64,000 bases of DNA from an uncultured Chloroflexia bacterium (GCA_963797095.1 CAWCNY010000005.1:320001-384000); one strand, 5' to 3'; counted from the stretch's first letter, positions 4,243 to 7,597 are shown. Made by a program: numbers and translations. Notes: a model not told the origin generated them from the sequence alone.

Positions 4243-4881
4243 ATGTTCCGCACTCATACAGATCCTACTATTGAGATGATGCAAGCCCTGGGGTTCACAC
4301 AAGACGATCTGGAGAATAACCGCAAAGGCCAACTCTCAGTCTCACAACGCGAGCAAATGGCCCTCAGGAAGCAATCGGCTATCAGGACTGGGCAAAGGGC
4401 CTCAAAGAGTACACCCCTGGTCATGCTCTACGTGATCGTGGTTCTTGGCATAATAGCTGTTGCGTTCATATCTACCGGTTCGTTCCAATATGTGCAAGAC
4501 GCTCTGGGCGAGTGGGCGATTCCTGCAATGATTGGCATAGCTGCATTGATACTTCTGATCGTGATAAGGATCCCCCGCCAGTTCCAGCGATCTGTGGCCG
4601 AATATAATCAGGGAGCCGCCAGTATGCCGCTCGACTATGTAGTGCTCTCTGTAATGGGCGAGATGAAGGTCAGAACCCGCTCGTTCGGGAGTAACGTTGA
4701 AACTCCCGACACTGTTACCCTCTATTACCTCAATGTAGGAGGTAAGGATTTCTCAGTTTCGGAATCCAGGTACAAAGCGCTCAAGAACGCCATCAACAGA
4801 GGCGCTGTGTACAGACTCTACTATGCCGAGTATGGAAAAACGACCTTCATACTCAGTGCGGAAGCGGCTGGTAACCGGTAA
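4243..4881 (+). CDS. Hypothetical membrane protein (two TM helices)
   Basis: AAGGAG at 4231-4236. ALGFTQDDLENNRKGQLSVSQRE N-terminus, two hydrophobic segments, C-terminal YRLYYA...ILSAE. Confidence 0.75.
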   Translation: MFRTHTDPTIEMMQALGFTQDDLENNRKGQLSVSQREQMALRKQSAIRTGQRASKSTPLVMLYVIVVLGIIAVAFISTGSFQYVQDALGEWAIPAMIGIAALILLIVIRIPRQFQRSVAEYNQGAASMPLDYVVLSVMGEMKVRTRSFGSNVETPDTVTLYYLNVGGKDFSVSESRYKALKNAINRGAVYRLYYAEYGKTTFILSAEAAGNR

Positions 4882-4944
4882 CGATTCCACCAATTCCATC
4901 ACTGGGCATATGCTGCTTAGCTCGACTGATCTGAAAATCGTGGC

Positions 4945-6260
4945 TCAAGCTGCCTCAACCACGGGGGCCAGTGTCACCTGGAAGCCGAGTCTTTCAATCT
5001 GCTTCGCCAACCTTCTTGCGGTGGCCTCTGGTCTGCGCTTCTCGAAGTAATCAGCTCCCAACTCTCGATAGGGCTCCTTACGAAGGATAACATGGTAAGC
5101 TATCACCAAAATCGAATGAGCTACCGCCACCAAAGCCCGCTTGTCCCCACGTCTGGTGACCAACCGCCGGTACTGGGCCGCCAGGTACGTCCCTCTGGTG
5201 CGTACCGCCGCCCGTGCTGCTTGCACAAGTCCCACCCGAAGCCACGCGTCTCCTTTGCGCGTCTTGCCCGACCGCCTCTTACCCGCACTCTCGTTGTTCC
5301 CAGGTGCCACTCCCGCCCAGGCTGCCAGGTGTCCGGCCGTCGGGAAACGGGTCATGTCCGTCCCGATCTCGGCCACCAACATCTCAGCCACCAACATCTC
5401 AGCCACCAACATCTCAGCCACCAACATCTCAGCCAACTCCCGCCCTACACCCGGGATTGTATCAAGCAAGCTGATCACCTCTTCGTTCCCATCAGCCTGA
5501 CACGCTGCGCGGATCTCGTCATCAAAGTGGTCAATCGTTTCGTCCAGAGAGTCGATCTGGCACAACAACTCGGTCAACAGGAAGCGGTGATGAGGTCGCA
5601 CTCTGCTTCTCAAGGCCCCTTCCAATTCGGAGCGTTTGCTGCGCAGCCTCCCCACCGCCAAACTGGCAAGCACTTTGGCATCGGTTTCGCCACTGATGAT
5701 GGCCGTAAGGATCGCCCGCCCCGACACACCCATCACATTGGTAGCTACATCGCCCAGCTTGAGGTTAGCTCCCTCACGTCCTTCGTCCTCAGCACTTTCT
5801 GCACACGGTTCACCAACGTAGCTCGCTGGCGCACGAAGTTGGTGCGCTCACGGGTCAAGTCTCGCAAGTCACGCTGAGATTGTGGTGGGATGAAGGAGGG
5901 CTGCACTAAACCATGACGCAGCAAATCAGCCAACCACTCGGCGTCTTTGACATCTATCTTGCGGCCAGGCAGCTTCTTTACGTGCTGGGCATTGAGTACC
6001 CAGACAGTGAAATTGCCTTCCAACAGGTTGAAGATGGGTTTCCAATAGACCCCGGTGCTTTCGAGGGCTACATGTGTCACTCCCCCCTCGCTCAACCAGT
6101 CACTGAGATGCAGCAATTCGGGGATGGTGGTGCCAAAGGAGCGGGTCTGGGTCTCGCTGTGAGGCGACACAGTGGACCCTGCAAGCATTCGACACGCTAC
6201 CACACTTTGTTTATGCACGTCCAATCCAGCGCAGCGCTCAAACATTACGTTCATCGCCAA
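4945..6260 (-). pseudogene. IS110 recombinase, frameshifted
   Basis: N-half has GLDVHK, LESTGVYW, GRKIDVKDA; C-half has TIPGVG, AWAGVAPGNNESAGK, AVAHSIL. A 14-nt insert (AGGACGAAGGACGT on the minus strand, about 5776-5789) breaks KVL|EGANLKLGDVATNVMG. Confidence 0.92.
5372..5431. repeat. 15-bp tandem repeat x4 (AEMLV) inside the IS110 recombinase
   Basis: GCCACCAACATCTCA at 5372, 5387, 5402 and 5417. Confidence 0.97.
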
Positions 6261-6302
6261 TACCTCCTGAGTTCATTGAGCTCAACAAGGGCGAGTTGTC
6301 GA

Positions 6303-6494
6303 GGCTGGATATCGGCGGGGAGGAGGATACCCGATGGATCAGAAACTGATCTACGCGCTTCCAGCTTCCATTGCACAGAGTGGGCCGTGGAAAACGGAGC
6401 AGCAAATGGTGGTGCTTGCGGGTATCCGGGTCAGTCTTTGTATCAGGCTCATAGCACCAAGTCGAGGCGACCGCATGGTTCGCCGAATCCATCC
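6303..6494 (-). ncRNA. Candidate IS110 bridge RNA
   Basis: Closing stem 6303-6317/6481-6494; perfect 9-bp stem 6325-6333/6419-6427. Guide-like matches to the target at 6436-6442 and 6459-6466, and to the element end at 6346-6352. Confidence 0.8.
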
Positions 6495-6679
6495 ATTGCT
6501 AGCATACATCTATACACCCATTTTCATCCGGGGTGGTGACCGTGACCCGGGGGTCATGGCGTCTTTGTACAAAAATGAAGGGAGGTGAGGACGGGTACAA
6601 CGGGTAAAGGGACCCGCAAACCCTTTGTTGTAAGATGGAAGTCTACCACAACACCATCTGAAAACAAGGAGAACTCACG

Positions 6680-7515
6680 ATGTCCCTACCCGACCCGATT
6701 ATACAGATTCTGCTCCATTTCCGACCAGTTTTCACTCGTCCTACCTGGCAAAAGGCTTTGGTATTGGTGGTCGGTACTATCCTGGCGCGTGGTCGACGTA
6801 CCGTAACAGCGGCCCTCAAGCAGATGGGCTTGCAAGACGAGGAGGACTTCACTCTGTTCCATCAGGTGCTCAATCGAGCAAGCTGGTCCTGCCTGACACT
6901 GAGTCGTTTGCTGCTCCAATTGCTGGTTAGCACCTTTGTTGGTGCTGGAGGCACAGTCCACATTGCTATTGACGAAACGCTGGAAAGAAGATGGGGCCGC
7001 AAAATCACCAAGCGTGGTCATTACCGAGACGGCGTACAATCGAGTAAGGAGCAATCGGTCTCAACAAGCGGGTTGCGCTGGGTGGTAATGATGCTGGTAG
7101 TACAAGTACCCTGGTCAAGTAGAGAGCGGGCTCTTCCTTTCTTCTCGGTGCTCGCGACTACTCCTAAAGTGAGCGGTGGACCATAGAGGTGACCTTTGAA
7201 GAGAGCCGAGCGCACCTGGGAGTGGAAACGCAACGGCAATGGTCAGACCTGGCAATTGAGCGCAGTACACCCTGCCTACTGGGCATGTTCAGCCTGGTTG
7301 CGCTATTTGGAAAGGCCCTGCACCCAGACGGCAAAGTGCCGGTACAGCGCACGGCGTGGTACGCCAAGAGGGAGGCTACCTTCTCTGATGTGTTAGCCGC
7401 CGTCAGGCGTCATTTGTGGGGCAACTTCACTTTTCAGACATCCCCAACAGACCCTGATGTCTGTTTAGTCCCACGCTCACACGTGGACAGGCTCGCTTAC
7501 GCGGTCTGCTATTGA
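6680..7515 (+). pseudogene. IS701-like DDE transposase with a large internal deletion and frameshift
   Basis: N-part FTRPTWQKALVLVVGTILARGRRTVTAAL...IDETLERRWGRKI is joined near 7172 to the C-part RWTIEVTFEESRAHLGVETQRQWSDLAIER in another frame. Confidence 0.88.
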
Positions 7516-7597
7516 ATTGGTAATGTACAAAGTCGAGCTTAGAGCCTTATAATCTTAGCAGCAGCCATGCTACCTCTCACAATGCAAGGAGCCTGAT

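Follow-up and report, generated by a model that had tools for sequence, protein, structure and literature searches.

The locus described here raises the question of whether the non-coding end of an IS110-family insertion sequence encodes an RNA that guides the element into the ends of another insertion sequence. The window, that is, the whole 64,000-nucleotide stretch of DNA analysed, comes from a source genome of 8 contigs and 6.02 Mb (G000). In it, the element body occupies 4928-6562 (minus strand, 1,635 bp), with the transposase on the minus strand, and the dinucleotide core CT is present at both junctions (4926-4927 and 6563-6564). The left junction reads CTCGA (4921-4925)-CT (4926-4927)-GATCTG and the right junction GGCGT-CT (6563-6564)-TTGTACA (6565-6571). 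Excision of the element yields CTCGA-CT-TTGTACA, with no target duplication and with the 2-nt core at each junction. A sequence-only reading of this DNA had taken this product to be the restored target, and we indeed found the 14-mer CTCGACTTTGTACA uninterrupted 10 times in the 6.02-Mb genome, compared with 0.045 occurrences expected, and again around a second copy of the element. This second copy (G000:C1:~484526-486327) is 99.8-99.9% identical to the first over the aligned blocks; its outer flanks differ from those of the window copy and the surrounding 14 bases are identical.

All 10 uninterrupted 14-mers proved to be ends of IS701-like elements or of one MITE. Eight of them are both ends of four elements of 1,475-1,476 bp (G000 C2:258005, C6:88168, C6:831723 and C8:55495), which have perfect 14-bp terminal inverted repeats and CTTAG flanks. 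A 447-aa ORF is present in three of these four full elements, and the full-copy ORF, a DDE transposase, scores 334 bits on the IS701-family model NF049999 (cut-off 170). The ninth 14-mer is the far end of the window's own IS701-like copy (7524-7537), and the tenth is the far end of the MITE on contig C1 that hosts the second IS110 copy. After IS110 removal, the window copy measures 980 bp and is an internal-deletion derivative that scores 130 bits on IS701 family models. Its remainder spans 6572-7537 (plus strand), up to and including the other terminal repeat, and contains two transposase fragments recognized from ORFs and family models (6680-7186 and 7189-7515, plus strand). The copy is flanked by a 5-bp direct repeat, CTTAG, at 4916-4920 (plus strand) and 7538-7542. 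The same pentamer stands on both sides of all five IS701-like copies of the genome, either as a sequence-specific 5-bp target duplication or as part of the ends. The MITE (L135, G000:C1:~484519-486504) is ~185 bp long and flanked by CTCAA and CTCAG; its 18-nt terminal repeats start with the same 14 bases as the IS701-like repeat, and the second IS110 copy sits at the same repeat position.

At the window locus, the left target half (4921-4927, plus strand), composed of CTCGA and the core CT, represents bases 1-7 of the IS701-like terminal inverted repeat, and the right target half (6563-6571, plus strand) consists of the second core CT (6563-6564) and TTGTACA, which represents repeat bases 8-14. 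The target of both IS110 copies is the IS701-family terminal repeat, with the crossover at repeat bases 6-7. These two are the only insertion events known for this element. Because the 14-mer occurs only at IS701-like or MITE ends and both insertions lie inside it, the IS110 target corresponds exactly to that repeat. This bears out the earlier claim that the guides match the inverted repeat of another IS family, the target being a perfect 14-bp IS701-like repeat. In the IS701-like transposase leader, we also observed a sub-threshold Rfam match to the Enterococcus sRNA Ref64 (6612-6677, minus strand; 21.6 bits against a gathering score of 44.3), which is probably due to chance.

The recombinase is encoded on the minus strand in two ORFs. 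The N-terminal ORF (5745-6260) carries the DEDD/RuvC-like domain (PF01548, E = 2.1e-28) and the C-terminal ORF (4945-5736) the Transposase_20 domain (PF02371, E = 1e-21). In sequence alignment, the C-terminal ORF keeps a Ser that aligns with the catalytic Ser region of IS621, and catalytic-type residues are present across the two ORFs. An intact homologue with 75% identity scores 275 bits on NF033542, 'IS110 family RNA-guided transposase'. Judged by its predicted domain order, a DEDD/RuvC-like domain followed by a Tnp (Transposase_20) domain, the element is a member of the IS110 family. Three-frame translation against the intact L022 homologue placed a 14-nt frameshifting insertion at ~5776-5789 (minus strand), after the residues NRVQKVL, and this insertion is common to both copies; the sequence-only reading had already implied that the recombinase would need repair. 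Since both copies share the frameshift and carry an expanded 15-nt repeat, the system cannot act on its own now, and the shared break further implies either that an already broken element was mobilised by functions supplied in trans or that conversion carried the break from one copy to the other. The ten perfect targets that are still empty fit with a loss of IS110 activity. A 15-nt in-frame tandem repeat (5370-5439, minus strand) lies within the Transposase_20 domain and encodes AEMLV units, of which the window copy has 4 and the C1 copy ~15. In paralogues, simple tandem repeats (GATCGGATCA-like, GAACGC units) separate the bridge-RNA region from the start codon of the recombinase (5' ends at G000:C6:~822490-822560 and C5:~607950-608015).

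The non-coding DNA of the element amounts to ~300 nt upstream of the recombinase gene, compared with ~20 nt downstream of its stop codon. To analyse it, we collected relatives from three sources: 201 related genomes, 23 of which gave a match at E <= 1e-20; a set with one genome per species, from which the best 80 of 592 relatives were used; and the paralogues in the source genome. A profile of the 5' end gave 106 matches, which were reduced to 101 distinct elements and then to 82 non-redundant RNAs. The clade is widespread, with members, going by record titles, in Chloroflexota, Cyanobacteria, Acidobacteriota and others. One element (L033), from an unpublished genome (G022), is included in every homologue count, and no claim is made on it alone. 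The boundaries of the homologues were set from the guide matches themselves, and the non-cognate controls were read by the same best-match procedure.

Near its ends, the element carries a subterminal inverted repeat of 7-8 bp, ATTTTCA(T)/ATGAAAAT, whose 3'-end copy precedes the core by 4 bases and whose 5'-end copy follows the core by 34. In the great majority of the 82 listed homologues, counted where the donor-arm match located the end, the ATTTTCA box of the 3' end (RE; 4932-4938, minus strand) stands immediately ahead of the variable end bases, and a few copies vary by 1-2 bases. Its counterpart ATGAAAAT (6520-6527, minus strand) is near-invariant among homologues. A 33-nt fragment that is 91% identical to window positions 6512-6543, the part comprising ATGAAAAT and the site X described below, stands alone at G000:C1:424093-424125. 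A search of metagenome contigs for the exact 19-nt end pattern gave 2 matches, both unrelated by blastn, and the sequencing runs listed comprise 20 DNA runs, mostly labelled soil metagenome, and 0 RNA runs.

The candidate bridge RNA is 192 nt long (6303-6494, minus strand) and has an outer stem that encloses the target and donor arms. This stem, proposed earlier at 6303-6317/6481-6494, forms between the segment preceding the first arm and the one following the second, and the mean energy of its cognate duplexes is -22.5 kcal/mol, compared with -14.3 kcal/mol for non-cognate pairs. RNAalifold analysis of 49 near-complete RNAs predicted a 4-bp stem that closes the first internal loop, with an inner stem-loop, and a 6-bp stem that closes the second arm; in this arm, two short helices bound an internal loop that contains a variable hairpin. 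Across the 49 homologues, 94.3% of the cells of the 24 predicted pairs are paired. Cells changed on both sides number 190, compared with 54.9 in shuffles; 0 of 500 shuffles reach 190, and slid controls gave 20-49. Helix 1, the closing stem of the target loop, pairs GACC as its 3' strand (6429-6432, minus strand) with GGUC (6469-6472) and shows both-side changes at all 4 pairs. Helix 2, the inner stem-loop of the target loop (GGUGC...GAGCC; 6445-6458, minus strand), is 99% paired, with both-side changes at 3 pairs, and helix 3, the closing stem of the donor loop (3' strand 6325-6330, minus strand, pairing with 6422-6427), shows them at all 6 pairs. Near-invariant G-U pairs at two positions (45/49 and 49/49) indicate that the folded strand is the transposase-sense strand.

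The covariation and the outer duplex energy together imply that the three stems of the sequence-only reading are real. Two of them, GGTC (6429-6432)/GACC (6469-6472) and GGATACCCG (6325-6333)/CGGGTATCC (6419-6427), are present as described and supported by covariation, and the third, the outer stem enclosing the whole unit, is supported by the difference between cognate and non-cognate duplexes. Folded as a single sequence, 6303-6494 gave z = -2.2 and the whole 302-nt end z = -0.2. A pseudoknot in which UGGUGC, at the target-loop centre, would pair with GCACCA of the donor 5' arm was rejected, with no covariation and 74 of 500 shuffles as good. When 4800-6800 was scanned against Rfam 15 with E values of up to 10, two sub-threshold chance matches and no bridge-RNA match were returned. 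As to the RNA start, a candidate -10 box, TATGCT (6501-6506, minus strand; TAnAnT in the family consensus and GGTAnAnT in alignment A2), would place it near 6494. In most relatives, GGTAnAnT (window 6501-6519; A2 columns ~59-70) follows ATGAAAAT(GG) by a few bases, with no conserved -35, and a scan of 6200-6700 for a consensus sigma-70 promoter found none.

The guide strings proposed earlier are all in place, CTTTGTA at 6436-6442, AAGTCGAG at 6459-6466 and CTGATCT at both 6346-6352 and 4926-4932. In the predicted RNA, the 5' target arm GCCUCGACUU (6459-6468, minus strand) has CUCGACU(U), the reverse complement of AG+TCGAG in the transposase frame, which is CTCGA-CT on the plus strand. The 3' target arm GAUACAAAGACU (6433-6444, minus strand) has UACAAAG, the left flank plus core, and the AC that follows equals the first two element bases, in a handshake-like arrangement. 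On the donor side, the 3' arm UAGAUCAGUU (D1; 6344-6353, minus strand) has AGAUCAG, the last 5 bases of the element plus core, and the 5' arm CACCACCAUU (D0; 6405-6414, minus strand) has the same sense as the subterminal site X (6532-6538). The two target-arm matches, 7 nt in the same sense and 8 nt in reverse complement, each include the core. Among 20,000 mononucleotide shuffles of the 192-nt RNA, 36 contained both kinds of match at a length of 7 nt or more.

Comparison of each arm with its own flank or end across the homologues revealed co-variation. The 3' target arm matched its own upstream flank and core in the same sense, at no fewer than 7 of 8 positions, in 65/99 cognate and 27/964 non-cognate comparisons, with a column-wise same-sense excess identity of 0.36-0.71; the two handshake columns gave an excess of 0.41-0.52 against the first two element bases. 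For the 3' donor arm, matches of at least 7 nt to its own last bases and core were found in 70/80 cognate and 37/938 non-cognate comparisons. The 5' target arm matched the reverse complement of core and downstream flank over at least 5 nt in 21/61 cognate and 43/721 non-cognate comparisons. A clear match of this arm is seen in about one-third of the homologues, with register shifts of 0-2 nt, and the 7-8-nt match in the present element is among the longest in the family. The sequence-only reading had set co-variation of the loop segments with the flanks as its check. In ~80 homologues set against non-cognate controls, this co-variation is strong for the 3' target guide and weaker for the 5' target guide.

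Two further observations concern the sites of relatives. Many relatives directly follow the 3' end of another IS110 element, head-to-tail, with a flank ending in TATTTTCAnnnnnAG (L022/L045, L024/L047, L058, L076, G000:C5:606344-609284 and C8:92728-95641). In addition, the 3' arms of the target and donor loops are identical in 3 of the 82 RNAs (the second copy of L030, L123 and L108), which implies that the own end is targeted and would give tandem arrays.

Taken together, these results make it highly probable that we are dealing with a bridge-RNA-type IS110 element, now non-autonomous, whose ~300-nt 5' non-coding end would encode a bispecific guide RNA. The fold, the co-variation of the guides and the identity of the target likewise speak for the earlier proposal of an RNA-guided recombinase that would be programmed against IS701-like termini. 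The homology to IS621 (Durrant 2024; Hiraizumi 2024) suggests that a tetramer of the recombinase would carry this RNA, one loop of which would pair with the end-to-end junction of the circularised element and the other with the IS701 repeat, and strand exchange would take place at the CT core.

The handedness of the system differs from that of IS621. It had been pointed out from the sequence that the core reads AG in the transposase orientation and that the order of the target guides is reversed relative to IS621, which is correct and common to the whole clade; the core is AG here and in most homologues, and AA or AC in a minority. In IS621, as described in the parts of the two original reports available to us, the 5' arm in the transposase orientation corresponds to left flank plus core, the core is CT with its T read by the protein, and the handshake bases follow the 3' arm (PMC11208160, PMC11208158). 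Viewed on the plus strand, the 5' arm of the present target loop equals CTCGA+CT, the 3' arm equals the complement of CT+TTGTA, and the handshake AC is complementary to GT, the last two bases ahead of the core in the junction GGCGT-CT. On the CT-core strand, the target loop has exactly the IS621 layout of left flank plus core, stem-loop, complement of core plus right flank, and handshake, which implies that the RNA and recombinase genes point the opposite way relative to the site. Most likely, the chemistry would be the same as in IS621, with the element body inverted relative to the site.

The reversed guide order is also the arrangement of IS1111-type seekRNAs, according to the accessible part of Siddiquee et al. 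2024 (PMC11187229). The element could therefore belong to the IS1111 group proper, with its non-coding region secondarily moved upstream, instead of representing a separate architectural clade, a possibility that we regard as real but doubtful. Besides the shared guide order, a subterminal inverted repeat is present in both, and the same source, as far as available, mentions rare IS1111 relatives with an upstream non-coding region (PMC11187229). In IS4321 of plasmid R751, we found that a right-side 10-nt complement lies 5' of a left-side 7-nt same-sense match in the downstream non-coding region and that the subterminal repeat is a perfect 11 bp; the ends of IS4321 were set from this repeat and the published 7/3 extensions, and both R751 copies lie in similar repeats. 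However, the subterminal repeat of the present element is only 7-8 bp long and its end distances are 4 and 34, whereas the IS1111 group is reported, in the part of the paper at hand, to have repeats of 11-13 bp with extensions of 7 and 3 bp (PMC11187229). Moreover, going by pairwise scores only, the recombinase is about equally far from IS4321 (25% identity, 46.6 bits) and from IS621.

The donor loop shows a further peculiarity. The sequence-only reading could not find a guide for TGGCGT-CT, and among the 82 homologues we likewise found none beyond chance in either sense. Matches of at least 6 nt, anywhere in the RNA, to the core and first 10 bases of the 5' end were found in 13/82 cognate and 111/644 control comparisons in reverse complement, and in 14/82 and 113/644, respectively, in the same sense. 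Column scans for those 5'-end bases gave no value of 0.25 or above apart from the two handshake columns. The core-adjacent left-donor guide is absent clade-wide.

The donor 5' arm corresponds to a site further inside the element. This subterminal site X (6528-6539; UCACCACCCCGG in minus-strand orientation) lies just before ATGAAAAT, 24-30 nt inside the 5' end and beyond a terminal hairpin, and its CACCACC (6538-6532) recurs in the same sense in the donor 5' arm (6414-6408). The arm and X matched over at least 6 nt in 25/80 cognate and 34/950 non-cognate comparisons, with a column excess of 0.33-0.48, and the close relatives L024 and L026 have the same single-base difference in both arm and X. 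Reverse-complement copies of the arm elsewhere in the elements were found at no consistent position. At the terminus of the 5' end, CCATGACC and GGTCACGG form a hairpin (6540-6559, minus strand) whose loop is 4 nt long and which is conserved in homologues. The arrangement caTG-stem-loop-stem-CAc is found between terminus and X in 79 homologues, with differing stem sequences. The stem pairs of these 79 elements comprise 435 Watson-Crick, 8 G-T and 32 A-C pairs, and the A-C pairs seem, by eye on the stems, to be mostly at the conserved CATG/CAC position. We infer that the left donor arm may be recognized via the hairpin together with base pairing between the RNA arm and the opposite strand at X, which would serve as an anchoring or recognition contact. 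In that case, the arm would pair with the strand opposite that used by the IS621 left-donor guide.

The identity between this arm and X might instead reflect binding of the RNA-recombinase complex upstream of the candidate promoter of the RNA, as a form of autoregulation, or a role in excision only. X indeed lies directly upstream of ATGAAAAT and of the TAnAnT box, and both the reversed pairing strand and the distance of 24-30 nt from the crossover would suit such a role. However, the arm lies precisely where a donor guide belongs, facing the verified 3' donor arm across one internal loop, and we consider autoregulation or an excision-only function a real but less likely alternative. The view that no guide RNA is involved and that the protein reads the short matches as subterminal repeats at the DNA level, or that they are due to chance, is highly improbable, because the matches sit in internal-loop arms of a strongly compensated fold, one strand is marked as the folded one by conserved G-U pairs, the arms change together with the flanks in ~80 homologues and the family model is that of an experimentally established RNA-guided recombinase family, although the single-sequence chance is modest (the 36/20,000 shuffles above) and the 302-nt end folds no better than shuffles.

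Returning to the guide-RNA interpretation, we tentatively propose that the clade may represent a third bridge-RNA architecture, with an upstream RNA, IS1111-type handedness and a left donor arm that would be read not beside the core but through pairing of the donor 5' arm with a subterminal site, which the conserved terminal DNA hairpin would bring near the crossover; taken as a whole, this is a possibility that we hold with clear reservations. If true, it would constitute a new way for a guide RNA to recognize its own element. The locus also offers what appears to be a natural example of guide-RNA programming, in which the two target arms spell a multicopy 'safe' site of 14 bp at the tip of a different insertion sequence, with two such sites occupied and ten empty in one genome. 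The clade further indicates that bridge-type elements do not all recognize their donor in one way, and it blurs the distinction between IS110 and IS1111 by RNA position and guide order. The subterminal contact and hairpin, if functional, would bear on how an element discriminates its own ends and on reaction direction, as well as on the number of programmable bases in engineered bridge recombinases.

Bridge and seek RNAs, and the covariation of their guides with targets, are already established, as the available parts of three reports make plain (PMC11208160, PMC11208158, PMC11187229). A 2026 preprint, in its accessible part, describes 86 covariance models for 32,190 bridge RNAs, many of which deviate from IS621, and the present clade may already be modelled in that set (10.64898/2026.10.21.760802). 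Our literature searches yielded no account of IS1111-type guide order in an RNA encoded upstream of the gene, nor of a donor contact at a subterminal site, which does not prove absence, and the RNA layout of the clade is probably a new variant. The windows examined by published pipelines may be too short to reveal X. Insertion into the inverted repeat of another element, in contrast, is not new in kind, IS1383 and IS4321/IS5075 being precedents at the level of detail in which we know them. Muller, Lauf and Hermann reportedly described in 2001 that IS1383 integrates into the inverted repeats of IS1384, and Partridge and Hall are said to have described in 2003 that IS4321 and IS5075 insert into Tn21-family repeats.

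Set beside these known systems, the present element shares with IS1383, known from a title-level description, that an IS110-family element targets the inverted repeat of another insertion sequence; host, target family and sequence are different. With IS4321 and IS5075 of the IS1111 group, it has in common that the guide pairing with the top strand is situated 5' of the one pairing with the bottom strand, that subterminal inverted repeats are present and that the target is the terminal inverted repeat of another transposon. In contrast to the IS1111 group, its RNA region lies upstream rather than downstream of the recombinase gene, its repeat is shorter and lies 4 bases before the core at one end compared with 34 at the other, and it has a local hairpin at the 5' terminus.

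The present element and IS621 both have a recombinase with DEDD and Tnp domains and an RNA region in the 5' non-coding end upstream of the gene, with two internal loops, each closed by a stem and made up of a 5' arm, an inner stem-loop and a 3' arm; in both, the CT core on the guide-defined strand lies within the guides and a handshake follows the 3' target arm. Unlike IS621, the present element has its genes reversed relative to the site, with an AG core in the transposase orientation, and the lengths of its target guides are swapped, with a 3' arm of 7-9 nt and a 5' arm of 4-7 nt. It also has an outer stem around both arms, a 7-8-bp subterminal inverted repeat and, in place of a core-adjacent left-donor guide, a donor 5' arm that corresponds to a subterminal site past a hairpin. 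Its recombinase, of ~400 aa, is only distantly related to that of IS621 (50 bits, E = 1.8e-12).
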